64,000 nt of DNA from Bdellovibrionales bacterium (lineage in GTDB: Bacteria > Bdellovibrionota > Bdellovibrionia > Bdellovibrionales > UBA1609): contig CBDHDF010000011.1 in assembly GCA_965261545.1 (NCBI GenBank), forward strand, positions 864,001 to 928,000. The letters run 5' to 3'. The translations under genes were made by a program, and so were the position numbers. The notes under the pieces were generated by a model. The model saw only the letters and a list, made by a program, of their open reading frames with translations, did not search any database and had not been told where the DNA came from. Shown here in pieces: positions 11,900 through 20,807 of the stretch; within the stretch, counting starts at the first letter, position 1, and every line of letters starts with the position of its first letter.

Positions 11900-14609
11900 G
11901 AGGCTTTTCATTATTTTTTGGGCTGCCCCTCAATATGTCGTCTTAGACAATCTCAAGGAAGGTGTTATTAAGCCAGATATCTATGAGCCAACGCTGAACG
12001 CCGTTTATGGCGCTGTACTGACTCACTACGGGGTCGTTGCTGACCCGGCAAGAGTTCGTGATCCTGATAGGAAAGGAACCGTTGAGCACGCCATTCACCA
12101 CACCCAAGACACAGCACTGAAGGGTCGTTCATTTAAAACCATTGAGGAGCAAAATGAGTGGCTCATGCACTGGGAGCACACTTGGGCTCGCCCTCGAGTC
12201 CATGGTTTGCACCAAGCGGGTCGTTTCTGAGATGTTTGAAGAAGAGAGCCCCTTTCTCAAAAAGCTCCCCCAAAAGAAATTTGATTTTTTTAAACAAGAG
12301 ATACGAACAGTTGCAGACGATGGGCTCATTCAAGTTGGAAACAGTTACTATTGCGCCTACCCTTCTGATCTAAAGAGCCAAGTCATTGTGCGTATTTATG
12401 ATAAAGACATAGAGATTATGGACCCTGCCACGATGAGTGTGATCCGCCGCCACCAAAAAGCCACTCTCCCGGGGAGTCTCTCTTTGCTAGACAAAGATCG
12501 TGTTTATAATCCATTGTTAGGCGCCAATTAAAATTGGCCATTTTTAGAAGCCGTCGCCAATGAAAAACGGCCAGTTGATGATGTACTGATTTAGTTATTC
12601 TTCGTTCAGAGTTTAGTCAAGTGTCTTTATTTTGCTCATCATTTAACTCGGACTATGCCACAAGATTCTGAGGAATGATTTTCTGCCCACCACTTTTGGC
12701 ATGACCCCAAATGCATCCTTCAGCCCTATGGCAGAGGTAAATGGAGTATTTTTCAGGATTCCTTGGCGCAGCTAATGTCTAAAGCTCCGCGAGAGTGACG
12801 AGCAAATAGTACGGTAAAAGCCAGTTATCCATAAATTTATCCATGGCGACACTGCGGCTGTGACCCCGATGTCTAGCAACGCAGTGCTGCTGTGGATAAA
12901 TTTTGTGGATAACTGGCGAGTTCCTTCCCCAAAAGTGGGGATCTCTAATGAACTTCTTTGGTTGAACTTTCCTCTTTGCTCTGTTTAGACTTGGCTTTTG
13001 CCGATTCGGTTCTCCAACTTTCTTTTCCTTCAATGTTGAGGGTTTCACAGTTGTGAATAATTCGATCAACAGCAGCAGCGGTGGTAATAGGGTTAAGAAA
13101 CACCTTATCCCATTCAGAGTAAGTTAAGTTTGTAGTGATCATGAGACTTTTCCTTTCATATCGCTGAGATATGAATTGAAAGAAAAGATCTGCCCCCTCT
13201 GTGCAGGAAGCTGTATAGCCAAGTTCATCACAAGCAATAAGATCAAAACGGTCTAATTTCTTAAAAAGAGCATTCAATGAGAGTTCTTTCTTGCTTTCAC
13301 GCATTGTTTCAATAAGTTCATGAGTGGTGACCCATAAACATCGATAGCCTTGTTCACAGAGTGAACGAACTAGGGACATGGCCAAATGACTTTTCCCCAT
13401 TCCAAAGCTTCCGTAAAACACAACATTACAGGCTTTTCTGACCCACTCTCCCTCTGCCATCCAATTAATTTGCTGAGCTGTCACTCCCGTTCTTTTCTGG
13501 AAGTTATAAGTTTGGAGTGATTTAAGTTGAGGAAGCTTGGCCCCCTTAAGCAATCTTTTCACTCTCTGGGAATGCTTGTCAGCAAGCTCATTTTGAACGA
13601 GTATACCTAAATAGTTCCTGTCCAGGGAAGAAAGTTAAGTAGTTTTAAGTATTTACATGCCTTCCCTTTAGATTTTATGCTTTAAAATGGAGTCCATCAA
13701 ACATAATCCGTGTAAATTCAGTTACTTACATAAAACGGAAAAATAAAATAAGTTCCCCCCCCCTCTCTTGACGAACCTTTCACAGCCCCTCCCTTTCAGT
13801 GACTTATGTGGCTATCAACTGGTTACTTGATATGAGAGGAAGAGTTGGATCAACCTGTGTTTCCACCGTGGTGATTTCAAACCTCCTTCAGGGAAATAAC
13901 ATTACGTTGCGCATCAACTTCAAAAAATACTTGACGTGTTTTTTCAGAGAAATAATTTTTGATATTTTATTCTTCATTTATTTTTTATGTAGGTTTTAGG
14001 AGGCGTGGGAACCTCTCTATGAGGTAGAATTCTTATCCATGTTCTCCGAGAACCTCTCTGATTTTTTTCTTCTTAAAAGACATCCTTGCTCACTTTTTTC
14101 CCTCAAAAAAACGTATGTTAATATAAAAATTAAAGAGAAACTTTCACCAAAGGGGGGACTATGCGCCATTTGAAGAAGACACAGTTGGGACTCTTTTCCC
14201 AATATCCTAACCACCAACTCAGTACAGAATTGCAGCAAATTAATAACATCATTGATCGCCATCCAGAGTTTGCCCATATGGTTCATGAAGACCTTGTTAA
14301 AGAAAAGAAAGATTCTGGTGATATTGGTATGACATCGGAGCAAGTTCTCAAGGTGGCTATTCTTAAATCCATAAGAGGTCTTTCCTATCGTGCGTTAGCC
14401 TTTAATCTTGTCGATTCAGTATCCACCAGAGCTTTTCTGGGCCTTGAATTGGAAGAAAATTACGCTCACTCCACCTTACAGGACTTGATTGTTCAAATAA
14501 GTGAAGAAACTTGGGGAATTATTAGCGCCTCTTTAGTTTCAGATGCAAGAGATCAAAAGATTGAGCCGTGTAAGAAAATGAGATTGGACAGTACAGTGAC
14601 GAAATCAAA

Positions 14610-14971
14610 CGAGTCCATTACTTAATACCCCCGTCAACGACAGAGGTTTTAGAGAGCTAAGGGTCACGGACCCCTCCCATCCCCTTTATAGGAAGTCATT
14701 CAAGGTGATTTCCATACCTAAAAATCAGAAAAAATCTACTTTTGCTTTTGTTCAATACAAGAACCACATGACGCTACGCATACCATTGGCTTCTACCAAT
14801 CTGAACCCCAATCTCTACGATAGGCAGGCCCCAAGCAAACTTGGTATAGTTGCAATTCAGGAGCTAATTTCACTGACTCAACAACTGGAAGAGCAACTAT
14901 GTCAATTACACCAAAAGATGTCTGGCCAAGACTGCCAAAAGAAATTCAAAAGCAAGTCATCAAAGACTTAA
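14610..14971 (+). CDS. Body of an attP-spanning small gene (start codon at 17054)
   Basis: Frame open from the left junction; RVTDPSHPLYRKSFKV motif lies upstream of the first in-frame GTG. Confidence 0.65.
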
Positions 14972-15135
14972 CTTTAGCCATTGAGGAGATTATATATGAA
15001 AACATCGGAATTGATTACACCTATTCACTTAAAGAGAAAAGCCATAATATACATCAGACAGTCGACCCCTCAGCAAGCCATCAAAAACAAAGAAAGTCTC
15101 GACCTTCAATACTCACTCAGGCAAAGAGCTACTGA
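14899..15135 (+). CDS. Small protein overlapping the LSR start
   Basis: ATG with GGAAGAG upstream; VWPRLPKEIQKQVIKDL. Confidence 0.5.
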   Translation: MSITPKDVWPRLPKEIQKQVIKDLTLAIEEIIYENIGIDYTYSLKEKSHNIHQTVDPSASHQKQRKSRPSILTQAKSY

Positions 15136-17041
15136 ATTAGGTTGGCAAGAAGATAGTATTGAAATTGTCGATGATGATTTGGGGATCACAGGAAGTAGTA
15201 TACAGTTTAGAGAAGGCTTCAAGAATATCCTTGCAGAAGTGACCTTGGAAAAAATTGGTATTATTCTATCGTACGATGTCACTCGTCTATCTAGAAACTG
15301 TACGGACTGGTACCAATTACTTGATCTGTGTGCTTTTAAGAATTGCCTCATTGCTGATAGAGAGTCTATTTATAACCCTTCTAATGTTAATGGAAGAATG
15401 TTACTCGGGTTTAAAGGTCAACTCTCAGAAATGGAATTATTTACGATACGCAATAGATTAACAGCAGGTCTTCTCAACAAAGCCAAGCGAGGAGATTTAG
15501 CTCTTAAATTACCAGTTGGTTTTATTCGAACAGAACAAGGTAAAGTGCTAAAAGATCCAAATAAAGATTTACAAGATCGCATAAATTTAGTATTTACTAT
15601 ATTCTTAAAACTGAAATCAGCCGGTAAGGTGTCGCGATTTTTTAACGATAACAACCTCTTACTTCCAAGAGTTGATTTTGTAAAAAGTATTCATTGGAAA
15701 AAAACATCCAAGGCAGCCATACTTTCTATTTTGAAGAATCCAGCTTATAGCGGAACTTTTGTATATGGCAAAGCTGAATACCGTAGAAAAGACTTAGCTG
15801 GAAAACTTAAGCGTACAAAGCTTCCACTTAATGAATGGAAAATTGTTGTGAAAGATAAATATCCTAAATATATCGATTGGAATACATTCTTAAAGATACA
15901 AGAAATTCTAAAAGACAACTACACTGAATATACTCGTAATAAAACAAGAGGCATACCTCGCCCTGGTAAGGCCCTCTTACATGGGATAGTCTATTGTGGA
16001 GAATGTGGCCACAAAATGTCAGTGCAGTATAAAACAGCAACTCGATACTTATGCAACTATCTACGCCAACAACATCGGGAACCTACTTGCCAATTCATTC
16101 CTACAGATCCAATCGATGATTATGTAGTAAACGCTTTTTTTAAGGTTCTTTCCCCTGTCGAGCTAGACTTGTATGCCAAGGCTTTAGAAAATAAGTCAAA
16201 AATTGACCAAGAGGTTTACAAATCACACATTCAGCAAATTCAGCGTTTAAGGTATGAAGCTCAACTGGTAGAAAAGAGGTATCGCAAAGTAGACCCTGAG
16301 AATAGACTTGTTGCAGATGAATTAGAAACACAATGGGAAGAGGCTTTAGTAATACTTAAAAAAGCCGAAGATCACCTAGAGAGGGTTAAGAATGAACAGC
16401 GTATTCCAACTGTGATCTCTCAAAAAATGAAAAGAGAATTTTCAGATTTGAATCAAAAACTACCTTCGCTATGGGAGGATAAGATATTGACCAAAGACAT
16501 GAAAAAGAAAATTCTTAGAACATTGGTTGAAAAGGTTGTCATTCACAGAAAGAAAAGAGATATGGTTGCACTGAGAATTGTTTGGATTGGAGGAGATACA
16601 ACAGAAGCTAGCATTCCAATCAAAGTTGGATCTTTTGATGAACTGTCATCTTCTGAAACGATAAAGAAAATAATTGCGCATCAGGTCAAGCTTGGGGTGT
16701 CTGATGAAGATATTGCCAAACTATTGACCCAAAAAGGATTCAGATCACCAATGGATACCACTTTTCTCAGAAATACTGTGAAGTCCTATAGACTAAACAA
16801 TAAAATCTATCGGAATCGAAAGCACTCTTTTCCGACCAAAGTCGAGGGAAGCCTCACAACATCTCAAATTGCAGCACTTATTGATGTTAAAGTTCATTGG
16901 ATTTATCACCATATTAAACAAGGGAGGATCATTGTCAAAAAACACGAGAAAACAAAGGCTTATCTCTTTCCAGATAAGAAAAAAACCATATCTGACTTTA
17001 AAAAACTTAAGTCCGGATCAATTAAAAAGCTACGTTACTAA
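14996..17041 (+). CDS. Large serine recombinase with C-terminal HTH-like extension
   Basis: YIRQST, TRLSR, LLHGIVYCGECG; GAGGAG RBS before ATG 14996. Confidence 0.95.
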   Translation: MKTSELITPIHLKRKAIIYIRQSTPQQAIKNKESLDLQYSLRQRATELGWQEDSIEIVDDDLGITGSSIQFREGFKNILAEVTLEKIGIILSYDVTRLSRNCTDWYQLLDLCAFKNCLIADRESIYNPSNVNGRMLLGFKGQLSEMELFTIRNRLTAGLLNKAKRGDLALKLPVGFIRTEQGKVLKDPNKDLQDRINLVFTIFLKLKSAGKVSRFFNDNNLLLPRVDFVKSIHWKKTSKAAILSILKNPAYSGTFVYGKAEYRRKDLAGKLKRTKLPLNEWKIVVKDKYPKYIDWNTFLKIQEILKDNYTEYTRNKTRGIPRPGKALLHGIVYCGECGHKMSVQYKTATRYLCNYLRQQHREPTCQFIPTDPIDDYVVNAFFKVLSPVELDLYAKALENKSKIDQEVYKSHIQQIQRLRYEAQLVEKRYRKVDPENRLVADELETQWEEALVILKKAEDHLERVKNEQRIPTVISQKMKREFSDLNQKLPSLWEDKILTKDMKKKILRTLVEKVVIHRKKRDMVALRIVWIGGDTTEASIPIKVGSFDELSSSETIKKIIAHQVKLGVSDEDIAKLLTQKGFRSPMDTTFLRNTVKSYRLNNKIYRNRKHSFPTKVEGSLTTSQIAALIDVKVHWIYHHIKQGRIIVKKHEKTKAYLFPDKKKTISDFKKLKSGSIKKLRY

Positions 17042-18335
17042 GGGGGTATCAACATGAGTGATCAAATATTCATCATCCAACGGATGCATCGCTTTTATAT
17101 GACTGCATAAGAGTTACAGAAAGAGAATTTAAAAAAGTTCGTAAAAATGTCATGAAAGATTTTTGGCGACTTATTTCAAGAGAAGATCTTAAGAGAGCAA
17201 AAACCTTGCTTTACAAAATTAATAATTCCAAAAATGATGCGGAAAGACTACCTTGCTATAAGGAGCTTTTAAAAATCGCTACCAAATTGAACAAAGGATT
17301 ACCTGATACCATCAGAAAGATAAAAAAAGAACAAAAATGTGTGAAGATGAATGCTTTGAAAAAGAGTCTAAAACAGTTAGAAAATGTTGCCTTCTACCTG
17401 GAAAAAATCATCTTTCAAACTCAAAAAAGAGTTATTGAGGGGAAAAAAGTATCTTCTGAAAAAAAGGTCCTATCCATCTTTGAACCGCATACAGACATTA
17501 TTGTAAAGGGGCAAAGAGAAGTCGAGTTTGGGCATAAAATCTTTCTGACCTCAGGGCAAAGCAACATGATTTTAGATTGTCAGATCCCTGATGGCAACCC
17601 CGCAGACTCTGATATGTTTTTAAAAGTTATGAATTCAGTGACACAAACCTATGGGGCTTGCCCTGTAAAAGTAAGTGCAGATGGTGGGTTTGCTTCAAAA
17701 GAAAATCTTGAAGAGGCCAAAGAGATGGGGGCTAAAGATGTTTGCTTCCCAGAAAAAAAAGGAATGAAAATATTAAAGATGGTTAAAAGTGCTTGGGTCT
17801 TTAAAAATCTTCTCAATTGGAGAGCCGGAATAGAGGCTGTTATTTCATTCCTTAAGAGATGTTTTGGTATGAGAGTTGCTTACTGGAAAGGGCATGATGG
17901 TTTTAAGAGGTATGTAAAGAATGCCGTTTGTGCCTATAATTTTGTTGTCTTGGCAAGACATGAATTATCAACTGTCACCTAAATTTATCCATTAGGAATA
18001 ACAGCAATGGACCAGGTCGAAGGTGCTAAAATCTTCCAAAGGTAGGGGTGCGTCTTCAAATCGAAAAAACTAGGGCGCAAGTCGCTTAAAGACCTTTTTC
18101 CCCTTAATCTGTAGAGTTTGTGTGGCAAATCTCCAACTCTCACTCCCCCATTGAGGCATTGGGAGGCTCAATGGGGAGTGTCAGAGAACAAAAAATGGGC
18201 CTTTCTGGACAGAAACTAAATACTGTTCATACGTCTTTTTTGTTTTTTCGGCAACTCTAGCCGTTGCAACATATTCATCCGCCATCGCTGGAAGTCGGAG
18301 TTTTTTAAGAGAACCTATAAGTTCTTCGTGATTCA

Positions 18336-19802
18336 TTAAGAACCTCCTATGTTTGGAACAAGACTGTCATATTGAGACAATCTAGGTTGAAGTGGTTTTT
18401 GTTGGTCATTCAAATTAATTTTGGTGGGATTGCCTAAGAGCAAATCTTTTATGGATTTAAAGTCGAAAATCTCACGACTTTCTAATTGAAGCTCCATGGC
18501 TGTAGATAAGTCCTGCCAACTCACATGCTGAATCAAGTTGATAACTCTTAAATATTCATGCTCGGCACGGCTTGAATCTTGTTGCTTGAGGTATTGATAA
18601 AAATTTTCAAACACATTTGTTGGAAAAAGAATGGATCGGTGAGCCCATCTTACCATGGCTTGCGGCTTACGAACTAAAGAAGGAAGGATATGTTCAAGAA
18701 GAAGACTATGCTCCCCATCAGGTTTTCTTTGATGGCGAGCGACAATCTCTTGCTTCCCTCCTGCACGATAGATCGTGACATGATAGGGACCCTGTACGGT
18801 TTTACAGGGAGCTTGGATCACCTCATCAGGTATGGAATATGTGGTTTTACCTATTCTCAAAGTCCCATAACCATTACTTTGACAAATATTCACCTTACAG
18901 AGAATATCTTCATCTCGTGGAGGCAAAGGCTTAAGAACTTTGGCCTCCTCCTCAAAGCGAGATTTGGTGGAGTCACTCTGATGCTGATCCATATAAGACT
19001 CTAAAAACTGATTCAAATGATCCCAGTCTTTAAAAACAATTCCTTTGTTTCTAACAATATTTTTTATCCGAGAACTGAAGGTTCGAATATCACGCTCCAC
19101 ATCTCCCTTGTCAGAGCCCTTCCCTGCGCGGCAGGGAAGAACCTTAAATCCATAGTATTGGATGGCTCGATCAAAAGATTGGGTGTAAATTCGCTGATTT
19201 CCTTTAAGAACTTTCTTCACACAGGGAGATAAATTATCAATACGGATGTTCGCACTCATCCCACCTATCTTTTCAAAAAAAGCATGCACCCCATCGATGA
19301 AACACTCATAGACAAGAAAGGGGTAGGCACGAACCCAACAGGTGCCACTACAAGGCAATGTTCCAAAATGGAGATGAACGATCTGAACACCATCGGCAAA
19401 TGGTAAAGCAACCTTCTCCTTAAAATCAAACTGAGCCTGTTCTCCAGGATCATATCTTTGGCTGAAAAAACGCTCCTTGGGGCGAGAACCAAGAATCTCA
19501 CAAACTCTTCTCTGAACCGTTCTCTCACTCCCACGATAACCCTCCTCAACTAATAGCTCATATATTTCACGGGCGGTGTTACTTGGGTTCAACTTCAAAA
19601 AGTACTTCACCCGATCCATATATCCATTAAGGGGATCTGGGCGAGTTCTTTTGGACCTCGCCTTGTACTTCGGTGGGGTGTTGGACTCACAGTACTTGCG
19701 CACCGTCTTACGATTGATCCCTAATTCACGAGATATTTCTGTCTTATTTTTACCACTGTGACTCAGGTCACGAATGCGGCCGAAAGTGTATTGACTAATC
19801 AT
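18336..19802 (-). CDS. istA: IS21-A transposase
   Basis: HTH, QFDF, IDNL, KGDVE; GAGGAGG RBS before ATG 19802. Confidence 0.92.
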   Translation of the reverse strand: MISQYTFGRIRDLSHSGKNKTEISRELGINRKTVRKYCESNTPPKYKARSKRTRPDPLNGYMDRVKYFLKLNPSNTAREIYELLVEEGYRGSERTVQRRVCEILGSRPKERFFSQRYDPGEQAQFDFKEKVALPFADGVQIVHLHFGTLPCSGTCWVRAYPFLVYECFIDGVHAFFEKIGGMSANIRIDNLSPCVKKVLKGNQRIYTQSFDRAIQYYGFKVLPCRAGKGSDKGDVERDIRTFSSRIKNIVRNKGIVFKDWDHLNQFLESYMDQHQSDSTKSRFEEEAKVLKPLPPRDEDILCKVNICQSNGYGTLRIGKTTYSIPDEVIQAPCKTVQGPYHVTIYRAGGKQEIVARHQRKPDGEHSLLLEHILPSLVRKPQAMVRWAHRSILFPTNVFENFYQYLKQQDSSRAEHEYLRVINLIQHVSWQDLSTAMELQLESREIFDFKSIKDLLLGNPTKINLNDQQKPLQPRLSQYDSLVPNIGGS

Positions 19803-20807
19803 AAGATCCTCCTCATTGCTAACCTTTTGAGTTGCAAGAGGGAGGGACTCTGTGAGCTTAGTATCTATATCAGAAGAAGAGACTTCATTGTCTAGTATTT
19901 GAACACTCCCTGAAGATTGGTCACTTTTCATTGGCGACAACCTCCATATTGAAAGTGGGACATTTTAATTGGCGACGGCTTTAAGGGAAGCCTGTCTTCA
20001 GAAAGAAATTCCATGAAAATTGAGGCAAATGTTGGAATCTTGTGGAATTTAAATACTTTAGAAAATGGGCACAGCCTAAACAGGCTTTTCTTGACTATAT
20101 ATTTAACCTCATTGAAATCCAGAAACAGTCTACAAATGAGAAATATGGAACCTGAATAGGCTGTCATGGAAGGACTCTCCAACACGGAGCCCCTTTCCAG
20201 GTCGACAAGAACCCAAAAGGAGTTCTTATCAGCTCGGAGCCTTTTTATGAGTAATATCAATTGATTATATGCGTCTCGGTTGACAATGCCAAAAATCACC
20301 ATAGGTCCTCCTCTGAAAAGTGGCCACTTTTCATTGGCGACGGTGGGGCATTTTAATTGTCAGCTAACATCCATCTCGCCATGTAGAAAATATTTTAGCT
20401 GATGCGGGTCAGATTGGCCCTCAAACAAAAGCTTTTTGTCAGTCATTACTCAGGGTGGATGAGAGAGTTGGAAACAGGCAGATGCGTGGGGTGGTGTCCT
20501 TGGCTAAAAAATATCACTCTGATCTTATTGAAAAAGCAGCCATTCAGGCTGTGAGCAGAGGGGTCTTATCTCTTAGGGTCTTTAAAAGGCTTGTTGAGGA
20601 ACTACAGCCCCCTGTGGATGAGAAAAAGATGGAATCCCACCTCACCCAAGACCACGACATCATTCGACCACCATCCGAGTATGCCATCTACTGGGATTTA
20701 CATGCCAACAACGAAATCCACCACTCACCCTTACACCCTCATCCTAGCACCAACCTTACTTAATCCACCCCCCCCAACCCCTCTTCTAGAGGAAAGGAGC
20801 AATCACA

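Follow-up and report, generated by a model that had tools for sequence, protein, structure and literature searches.

A transposon of 2457 bp in the window (the whole 64,000-nucleotide stretch of DNA analysed here) is likely to carry a recombinase cofactor gated by topology: in the integrated element its first gene, ORF1, has no start, and excision as a circle would complete a gene of 124 amino acids. The right tip of the element holds a ribosome-binding site, an ATG 13 nt from the tip and four codons, with the other 120 codons at the left tip. That such a gene should exist only after excision was proposed in the initial annotation, and when the joined ends (attP) were rebuilt for homologous elements, 59 of the 62 loci in which both ends could be placed proved to keep the ribosome-binding site and the ATG, together with a frame that runs on through the joint. 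These loci come from Wolbachia, cyanobacteria, Planctomycetota, proteobacteria and Chloroflexota, with recombinases 45–63% identical; they are related and include near-identical copies, so that the counts are not counts of independent events.

The element and its divided gene

The element (14610–17066; this and every feature below on the + strand) lies within an IS5-type transposase gene; it is a minimal transposon, similar to an IS, for which a large serine recombinase serves as the transposase. The N-terminal fragment of the interrupted transposase (14161–14625, DUF772 domain) continues through the first 16 nt of the element in a different frame before it terminates, and the rest of the gene (17067–17982, with an ORF listed from 17152) carries the DDE_Tnp_1 domain; read from the sequence, the transposase frame is continuous across the empty site. 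Eight full 2457-bp copies of the element (99.8–100% identity) and four fragments are present in the genome, beside 51–52 full copies of each IS flank, and the ends of the element were set by the approximately 40 empty copies of the same IS, in which ATCAAA is single. Spread of one insertion by transposition of the IS is not favoured, the five typed copies of the element here being spread over three different IS haplotypes, of which two also occur in empty copies. One Wolbachia genome has six copies at five distinct sites, all ending in AA; insertion at several sites that have a core dinucleotide in common and resemble the joint is thus found, as in elements of the Tn4451/Tn5397 kind. Gene conversion is a process that could imitate the haplotype pattern of loaded and empty IS copies.

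The coordinates of the two ends were right as initially annotated, with ATCAAA at 17061–17066 and again at 14604–14609, but the proposal that all 6 bp form the core did not hold: relatives place the crossover at the terminal dinucleotide, AA here, and only the last 2–7 bases are common to their left flank and right end. The left ATCAAA copy belongs to the target IS, and crossover probably takes place at the AA with which it ends. The left arm of the recombination site (14610–14632) consists of 12 inner bases and then TTAATACCCCC at 14622–14632 (family end consensus, information per position), a mirror image of the right-arm motif. The right arm (17042–17066) consists of GGGGGTATCAA at 17042–17052, which doubles as a Shine-Dalgarno sequence, the ATG at 17054–17056, three codons and the first base of the fifth, and closes with the AA core at 17065–17066.

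The reading of the divided gene was likewise reproduced. AGGGGGT (17041–17047) follows immediately on the recombinase stop codon (17039–17041), with the ATG at 17054, and the left-end frame is open from 14600 to a stop at 14969–14971, its first ATG, GTG or TTG being GTG 14705; the ORF1 body (14612–14971, 119 codons and the stop) accordingly has no start codon of its own before that GTG. Joining 17054–17066 to 14610–14971 by script gave one ORF of 124 codons, in which the codon spanning the joint is made up of A (17066) and CG (14610–14611), and the same ATG in the integrated state gives only an 18-aa peptide.

Joined forms of related elements have been recovered in assembled DNA. Of 20 metagenome contigs that matched the junction pattern, 18 did so by chance and two contain genuine junctions with the ORF intact; a 3228-bp contig (L127) has a 127-bp terminal overlap that closes it into a 3101-bp circle, again with the junction ORF intact, and at L131 the order is recombinase C-terminus, junction, ORF1, recombinase N-terminus. 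Three of 32 catalogue proteins fetched have a junction-type M-x-x-R-T start, one of them on a 2600-bp contig. Neither the 40-mer nor the 24-mer of the junction occurs in the assembly of this organism, and the four public runs holding the stretch, which are one sample kept as assembly contigs, a form that drops rare molecules, contain both the filled IS and the empty form skipping exactly 2457 bp, with the back-joint not found. Viral contigs gave 14 junction-pattern matches, none with a recombinase, and the public runs list no RNA run containing the stretch.

The ORF1 protein, its predicted partner and the genes downstream

The proposed mechanism starts from the integrated element, in which ORF1 would be silent for want of a start codon. 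Excision as a circle would join the tips into a complete ORF1, followed by ORF2 and the recombinase gene, and the ORF1 message would presumably arise from transcripts that continue beyond the end of the recombinase gene and follow the circle round to ORF1. The ORF1 protein would then bind the recombinase, at the junction of zinc ribbon and coiled coil that serves as the site of directionality factors, and alter its action in the free element, most likely by committing it to integration or by blocking the back-reaction. Ribosomes translating ORF1 would travel across the start of ORF2 and terminate at, or a little short of, that of the recombinase, and the circle may thereby yield more recombinase as well; integration would split ORF1 again, resetting the switch. 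Since a classical directionality factor made only by the circle would block integration, seemingly a maladaptive outcome, the direction of control proposed here is a guess.

ORF1 is a real protein, judging by its substitution pattern and its modelled fold. Substitutions in its core number 1154, 770 and 2158 at codon positions 1, 2 and 3, a profile search returned 867 cluster representatives, and the structure model (pLDDT 78.5) is an SH3-like barrel with a helix, for which fold searches retrieved no more than barrels of the generic SH3, KOW and Tudor kinds (Foldseek E of at least 0.024, Z of at most 5.0). The likeness to DUF5372 that the initial annotation had pointed to is real but weak at the level of sequence profiles, making ORF1 a distant relative of that family: PF17342 matches at E≤0.1 in 31 of 43 relatives, with 14–19 bits and hence below the 25-bit gathering cut-off, seven of eight relatives examined singly score 13.9–19.1 bits over profile positions 1–45 of 78, and DUF5372 is carried by 28 of the 30 nearest Atlas clusters, whereas ORF1 of the window itself has no PF17342 match even at E≤10. 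A PF17342 search was blank for 201 genomes of the phylum, but it was blank for all 14 control genomes too, and is therefore uninformative; a six-frame ORF1 search of 401 genomes of the phylum found nothing credible beyond the genome itself, a word-based search found one protein only, a rearranged copy, and neither NCBIfam nor a sequence-profile search of the PDB gave a match or relative for ORF1.

The recombinase gene (14996–17041) encodes 681 aa with the Pfam domains Resolvase, Recombinase and Zn_ribbon_recom, arranged as the resolvase catalytic domain (PF00239, 72.1 bits, residues 16–167), DBD1 (PF07508, 65.7 bits, residues 196–308) and then the zinc-ribbon DBD2 (PF13408, 38.4 bits, residues 327–380). 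The catalytic serine is present, and R21, Q22 and S23 do not vary among the 27 relatives aligned. Relatives of the recombinase number 5516 at E≤1e-10 among 8000 candidates scored; a single-protein scan of genome contigs gave none and an alignment-based scan gave 213. The closest solved recombinase is the SPbeta integrase (E 5e-10), with no TnpX structure among the matches.

A complex of ORF1 with this recombinase was predicted with a score of 0.62, a mark reached by 116 of 157 solved complexes and by 2 of 215 mismatched pairs, against 0.00 for the best of three controls; the score expresses model confidence and comes from self-made alignments, and the runs share at least 86% of contacts with a partner pLDDT of at least 64. 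The modelled interface involves recombinase residues 333–339, 356–362, 384–400, 472–515 and 527–536, and on the ORF1 side the D-P-x-H-P-L-Y motif and the helix; a coiled coil in DBD2 is suggested by the approximately 100 residues after the zinc ribbon and by these interface residues. Directionality factors bind the junction of DBD2 and coiled coil, according to an excerpt of PMC12286644. The idea of an accessory protein, raised in the initial annotation, has thereby gained a predicted recombinase interface, which is a model result, and the ORF1 protein probably steers the recombinase, as far as such modelling can indicate.

A second small frame, ORF2 (14899–15135), encodes 78 aa. It is read at −1 with respect to ORF1 and the recombinase, begins before ORF1 has ended and extends 140 nt into the recombinase gene. 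Its ATG lies at −97 (32) or −94 (7) from the recombinase ATG in 39 of the 50 relatives with the recombinase start located, the others having an earlier in-frame ATG (three) or another local layout (eight). Its residues 1–40 are modelled confidently as helical and the remainder as disordered, and searches of Pfam and the Atlas gave no match for it. In the 90 nt upstream of the recombinase, substitutions number 2237, 1539 and 2590 at ORF2 codon positions 1, 2 and 3, following the frame of ORF2 and not that of ORF1, which indicates that the ORF1 tail is open but not selected as protein. In 17 of 51 relatives a distance of 6 nt separates the ORF1 stop from the recombinase ATG downstream of it; in 5 of 51 the two overlap as ATGA. 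A promoter-like site inside ORF1 and upstream of ORF2 (14821–14850; TAGGCA, 18 nt, TATAGT, with TG before) is a lead only, a promoter scan having found 7 sites in the region against 7.9 expected from shuffles, which is no excess.

Such a layout would also suit a coupling device, in which the junction ATG loads ribosomes only on transcripts of the circle and carries them to the ORF2 and recombinase starts, so that only the circle gives a high output of recombinase, the ORF1 protein being secondary. The open ORF1 tail, with its substitutions in the frame of ORF2, is as this explanation would have it, and in 43 of 51 relatives that tail continues past the ORF2 ATG to stop 6–63 nt before the recombinase ATG, in the same frame; the recombinase gene nevertheless has a Shine-Dalgarno sequence of its own, and the coding signature of the ORF1 core, its confident fold, its hundreds of relatives and its predicted specific interface with the recombinase leave coupling improbable as the main function, although the coupling and cofactor roles are compatible with each other. 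It is similarly unlikely that ORF1 is a directionality factor of the classical kind, raising excision and lowering integration, which would act as a burst in trans on integrated copies and allow integration after its decay: the predicted binding site is that of known directionality factors, and copies that could be targets in trans are many (eight here, six in the Wolbachia genome), yet the first excision would have to happen without the factor, and a circle that lacks a replication origin and blocks its own integration risks loss.

Conservation of the joint among relatives

The arrangement at the junction exceeds chance in the sequences compared. From the left end to the conserved motif, the ORF1 frame is stop-free in 59 of 61 non-identical relatives, against 27 and 3 for the other frames, and the length of this leader takes ten values between 45 and 80 nt, equal to 2 mod 3 in 58 of 61; of the three exceptions, two (L050 and L111) were traced by hand to the end-finding heuristic, which presumably accounts for the third as well. 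Where a right end was found (n=52), its start codon is ATG in 49, GTG in two and TTG in one, this last being a false call at L072. The junction ATG is invariant (1.6, 2.0 and 2.0 bits), in contrast to its neighbouring bases and to the mirrored positions of the left arm, both of which vary, and this points to a start codon and not just a binding site. No in-frame ATG, GTG or TTG occurs between the left end and the conserved motif in 53 of the 61 relatives, and the internal start at GTG 14705, which the initial annotation had named as the outcome that would count against it, would remove the most conserved motif of the protein, V-T-D-P-x-H-P-L-F/Y (14663–14689), because the motif lies upstream of that codon. 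Across the first seven codons of the leader, the substitution counts (176, 244 and 293 at codon positions 1, 2 and 3) give no clear sign of coding, and as GGGG-TATCAA at the right end mirrors the left-arm motif, conservation there is partly attributable to recombinase binding rather than ribosome binding.

That the right-end ATG and Shine-Dalgarno sequence are conserved only as a recombinase binding site, with ORF1 started otherwise in integrated copies and the continuity of its frame functionless, is very unlikely, for although this mirrored motif, an in-frame start within the leader of 8 of the 61 relatives, upstream start codons supplied to the open frame by some flanks and the varied N-termini of gene-called ORF1 proteins all agree with it, the ATG is unmirrored in the left arm and yet the most conserved triplet of the inner arm, the leader changes in length only by multiples of three and is stop-free in one frame only, and the starts supplied by flanks are sporadic and differ between sites. 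Some integrated copies might conceivably still express ORF1.

Should ORF1 indeed be a cofactor gated by topology, the free or inserted state would be read by the physical wholeness of one gene, with no regulator, which would be a very economical route to directionality for a transposon with only a recombinase, and DUF5372-like proteins would gain a job as recombinase cofactors. A gene that has no start when integrated is also an annotation blind spot: as integrated copies lack the ORF1 start codon, gene callers skip ORF1 or assign arbitrary N-termini. Large serine recombinases are already used to engineer genomes, and a compact pair of recombinase and cofactor, with its new mode of control and its low specificity for targets, might be of use there; insertion into the catalytic motifs of other mobile elements is a clear added case of element-on-element parasitism. 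A much wider reading is possible though doubtful, namely that DUF5372-like proteins and this recombinase clade together define insertion elements of a large class, so far unrecognised, that are moved by serine recombinases and have a topology sensor built in; in these the recombinase alone would excise, the circle-only cofactor would be an inverse directionality factor that switches it to integration and is turned off in its turn by that very integration, and the elements would specialise in catalytic motifs of the genes of other mobile elements (group II intron reverse transcriptase, other serine recombinases, IS transposases) as hyperparasites of the mobilome.

Comparison with known systems

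The open-access literature searched contains no description of this element family or of a cofactor gene completed by a junction, and names DUF5372 in no paper. The nearest parallels are the transposons moved by large serine recombinases, Tn4451/Tn4453 (TnpX) and Tn5397 (TndX), which have a 2-bp crossover dinucleotide at their ends, insert at sites resembling the joined ends and, in the circle, make a promoter for the recombinase gene at the joint. The element described here likewise uses a large serine recombinase as transposase and would gain from its joined ends an expression signal that the integrated form lacks; unlike those transposons it is only 2.46 kb long without cargo, its recombinase is distantly related to the solved ones, and its joint completes the coding sequence of a separate small protein instead of a promoter. 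Circles of IS911, IS30 and IS492 and of the IS110/IS1111 group also report the excised state, through junction promoters formed by the abutted ends; they share with this element the creation of an expression signal by joined ends, which here consists of translation start signals joined to a coding body.

In mycobacteriophage BPs, which uses a tyrosine integrase, integration trims the 3′ end of the repressor gene and both forms are translated; integration here removes the 5′ start signals, and the integrated form should go untranslated. The integration-dependent immunity of BPs is otherwise similar, with attP in a regulatory gene whose protein differs between the integrated and free states (PMC4557955, in extract). 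A recombination site inside the element's own ORF, which is whole only in the free circle, is also known from the 'suicidal' tyrosine integrases of the SSV type (part of PMC7253208), from which the present case differs in that the recombinase ORF (14996–17041) is intact and the split gene is that of the small putative accessory protein, and in having a serine and not a tyrosine enzyme in another domain of hosts, SSV-type elements being archaeal viruses and plasmids. Serine recombinases are described only in the context of XisF for Thiomargarita (in the portion of PMC4853749 available), and the gin/GirX system combines an ordinary directionality factor of 42 aa with the rebuilding of a host gene (PMC5595907, in extract). 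Like the directionality factors of large serine integrases, ORF1 is a small protein of a class that lacks any one fold, has its gene next to that of the recombinase and has its predicted binding site at the junction of DBD2 and the coiled coil (PMC12286644, in excerpt); the known factors come from conventional genes that an integrated prophage expresses in order to set off excision, whereas ORF1 would not be expressible from its own integrated copy.

The split gene and its integrated copies

The serine-recombinase element (14610–17066, 2457 bp) lies within an IS5-type transposase gene (14161–17982), the halves of which carry the Pfam domains DUF772 to the left and DDE_Tnp_1 to the right, and encodes a 681-aa large serine recombinase (14996–17041) with Resolvase, Recombinase and zinc-ribbon domains. 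Direct reading of the sequence bore out the right end described in the initial annotation, where AGGGGGT (17041–17047) and an ATG at 17054 precede ATCAAA (17061–17066). A second ATCAAA occupies 14604–14609, and from it a frame runs open to a stop at 14969–14971, as had been proposed, with no ATG, GTG or TTG before GTG 14705. Joining 17054–17066 to 14610–14971 by script returns a single ORF of 124 codons (ORF1); read in place in the integrated state, the ATG at 17054 gives only 18 codons. The element's own recombination site divides ORF1 in two, which confirms in the window sequence the suggestion of a gene spanning attP.

Eight full copies of the 2457-bp insert (99.8–100% identity) and four fragments are present in the assembly, together with 51–52 full copies of each IS flank; filled IS copies contain two ATCAAA sequences and empty copies one. 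Contigs from four runs of one sample include the filled form as well as one lacking exactly 2457 bp. Typing was possible for five loaded IS copies, which represent three IS haplotypes; two of these also occur in 14 and 3 empty copies. This pattern favours the element having entered the same IS site repeatedly rather than one insertion spread by the IS, with gene conversion as a process that could generate the same haplotype picture.

Elsewhere in the genome, an element copy (contig C11:326875–331346) carries a 2011-bp insert flanked on each side by element positions 1097–1112, an IS copy (C11:318069) retains the first 14 nt of the left end followed by unrelated DNA, and further pieces of 84 nt and 946 nt lie at C10:8505–8588 and C7:583399–584343. 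Insertion sequences are dense in the window; two further ORFs beside the IS (12945–13562 and 18336–19940, both minus strand) resemble an IS21-type helper ATPase and transposase in sequence. A weak terminator-like hairpin in the IS flank just past the right end (17074–17086) could terminate recombinase transcripts from the integrated copy.

Distribution, conservation and joined forms in relatives

Recombinase relatives are abundant (5516 at E ≤ 1e-10 among 8000 candidates scored), many on contigs of ~2.4–2.6 kb, a size suggestive of assembly breaks at the ends of a repeat. An alignment of 27 relatives brought up 213 loci in reference genomes; the 80 retained (45–63% identity) represent Wolbachia, cyanobacteria, Planctomycetota, Alpha-, Beta- and Gammaproteobacteria, Chloroflexota, Acidobacteriota and Actinomycetota. 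The ends can be read directly from six copies in one Wolbachia genome: the left end opens with the same arm motif beginning CGA, the right end falls 13 nt past an ATG preceded by a Shine-Dalgarno sequence, and AA always closes the left flank and also closes the element. Assemblies break exactly at the element tips at five loci (L038, L042, L054, L111, L113) and in many contigs of recombinase relatives, L111 being a 2449-bp contig that is solely the element; as such breaks are frequent, draft genomes probably under-count the family and place it poorly.

Most loci (L039, L055, L087, L114 and ~30 more) interrupt, in antisense, the reverse-transcriptase gene of a group II intron. The insertion point, at RVT_1 profile position 78/79, separates D-A-D-I-S-K-C exactly from F-D-R-I-N-H within a conserved motif, and maturase and HNH domains are encoded downstream. 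Two loci (L107, L113) lie in the gene of a different serine recombinase, and the window's copy has its IS5-type transposase host. Judged from these host genes, the family inserts within genes of other mobile elements.

A script seeking the right-end Shine-Dalgarno and ATG motif and the left end in the window's copy and the 80 loci located both in 62. The joined ends keep the frame in 59 of them, as the split-gene proposal predicted, and the resulting ORF exceeds 60 aa, begins M-x-x-R/Q-T and continues into a conserved V-T-D-P-x-H-P-L-F motif; the three misses are failures of the end-finding heuristic, comprising a wrong left end (L050), a spurious call on a decayed right end (L072) and a contig starting exactly at the left end (L111). 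Among 61 non-identical left ends, the leader, from the left end to the V-T-D-P motif, is free of stops in the ORF1 frame in 59 (27 and 3 for the other two frames), takes ten lengths from 45 to 80 nt with the frame kept in 58, and in 53 contains no in-frame ATG, GTG or TTG. The right-end start is ATG in 49/52, GTG in 2/52 and TTG in 1/52, the last being the false call at L072. The internal GTG 14705 is excluded as the start in this family, as it falls downstream of the best-conserved motif. Conservation of the split of ORF1 is thereby demonstrated at the level of sequence.

The family consensus of the tips is symmetric: GGGG-TATCAA and its mirror TTGATA-CCCC flank the core dinucleotide, each at a distance of 12 nt from it. 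The Shine-Dalgarno-like bases double as arm motif, so that their conservation is not creditable to translation alone. The right-end ATG departs from this pattern: it carries 1.6, 2.0 and 2.0 bits and the next five bases 0.3–0.9 bits; the left-arm positions mirroring the ATG are variable. Substitutions by codon position reveal no coding pattern in the first seven codons of the leader, a weak one in its remainder and a strong one in the ORF1 core.

The joined form is present in nature in relatives. A degenerate junction-spanning pattern matched 20 metagenome contigs, two with a recombinase. A 127-nt overlap between the ends of one 3228-bp contig, L127, closes it as a 3101-bp circle, the alternative being a tandem repeat; its order is recombinase, an extra 161-aa ORF, junction, intact ORF1, ORF2 (a small overlapping ORF) and recombinase. 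A second contig, L131, reads recombinase C-terminus, junction, ORF1 and recombinase N-terminus, its recombinase being only 30–36% identical to that of the window. For the Bdellovibrionales bacterium, the junction 24-mer is absent from the assembly and the back-joint was not found in runs kept as contigs only. The extra ORF of L127 (423–905) separates the recombinase stop from the right-end start signals, which indicates that the family can carry cargo there; L037 and L054 have 80–150 extra nt at this position.

Products of the split gene and a proposed role

A search with a profile built from 43 ORF1 sequences returned 867 cluster representatives with differing N-termini, as expected if gene callers improvise, and a junction-type M-x-x-R-T start occurs in 3/32 fetched proteins, one of them on a 2600-bp contig. 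The proposed likeness to DUF5372 holds in part: 31/43 relatives match below threshold, from the V-T-D-P motif onwards, and DUF5372 occurs in 28 of the best 30 Atlas clusters, but the window's ORF1 has no Pfam match. Its model (pLDDT 78.5) comprises four strands then a long helix, the barrel weakly resembling SH3, KOW and Tudor folds (Z ≤ 5). Co-folding with the recombinase reached 0.62 (highest of three controls, 0.00), a mark attained by 116/157 solved complexes and 2/215 mismatches, with at least 86% of contacts in agreement between runs and partner pLDDT of at least 64. The predicted contacts involve the D-P-x-H-P-L-Y motif and helix of ORF1 and recombinase residues 333–339, 356–362, 384–400, 472–515 and 527–536, which belong to the zinc-ribbon domain and to the base of the putative coiled coil. 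PMC12286644 describes directionality factors as binding the zinc-ribbon/coiled-coil junction and acting by redirecting the coiled coil, and the predicted ORF1 contact site is this same junction.

ORF2 (14899–15135), a conserved ORF, occupies the third frame, overlapping ORF1 and the recombinase gene, and matches no known family. Among 50 relatives whose recombinase start was located, 39 have the ORF2 ATG at −97 (32) or −94 (7) relative to the recombinase ATG, three an earlier in-frame ATG and eight a different local layout. The openness of ORF2 over the recombinase gene exceeds synonymous shuffles in AT-rich hosts (p 0.002–0.07), with no excess in GC-rich hosts; the first 40 residues are predicted confidently helical and the remainder, overlapping the recombinase gene, disordered. 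Over the 90 nt leading up to the recombinase start, the substitution pattern is that of the ORF2 frame (2237, 1539 and 2590 at ORF2 codon positions 1, 2 and 3) and not that of ORF1; the ORF1 tail is therefore open without being selected as protein. Its layout suits translational coupling, the ORF1 stop lying 6 nt before the recombinase ATG in 17/51 relatives and overlapping it as ATGA in 5/51, with the tail in the recombinase frame in 43/51.

In integrated copies, an internal promoter would drive ORF2 and the recombinase, although the candidate at 14821–14850 scores no better than chance. In the circle, transcription would cross the joint, as the gap from the recombinase stop to the Shine-Dalgarno sequence leaves no room for a terminator, and would yield a translatable ORF1, the product of which may bind the recombinase and alter its preferred reaction; ORF1 translation may additionally raise recombinase synthesis, and integration would then disrupt ORF1. 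The suggestion of an accessory protein made from the circle is supported as a reading by the kept frame, the joined forms in relatives and the predicted recombinase contacts. Commitment of the free circle to integration is the favoured role, as an origin-less circle gains nothing by blocking integration, and a classical excision-promoting factor is less favoured.

Comparison with known systems

In IS circles and Tn4451, joined ends create promoters, whereas the joint described here brings translation start signals to a gene body. No description of this arrangement was found in the open-access papers searched. SSV-type tyrosine integrases (PMC7253208) and integration-dependent immunity in mycobacteriophages (PMC4557955) provide known cases of genes spanning attP. 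What is new is the combination of a serine-recombinase transposon, separated translation start signals and, in place of the recombinase or a repressor, a predicted recombinase-binding cofactor as the split gene.
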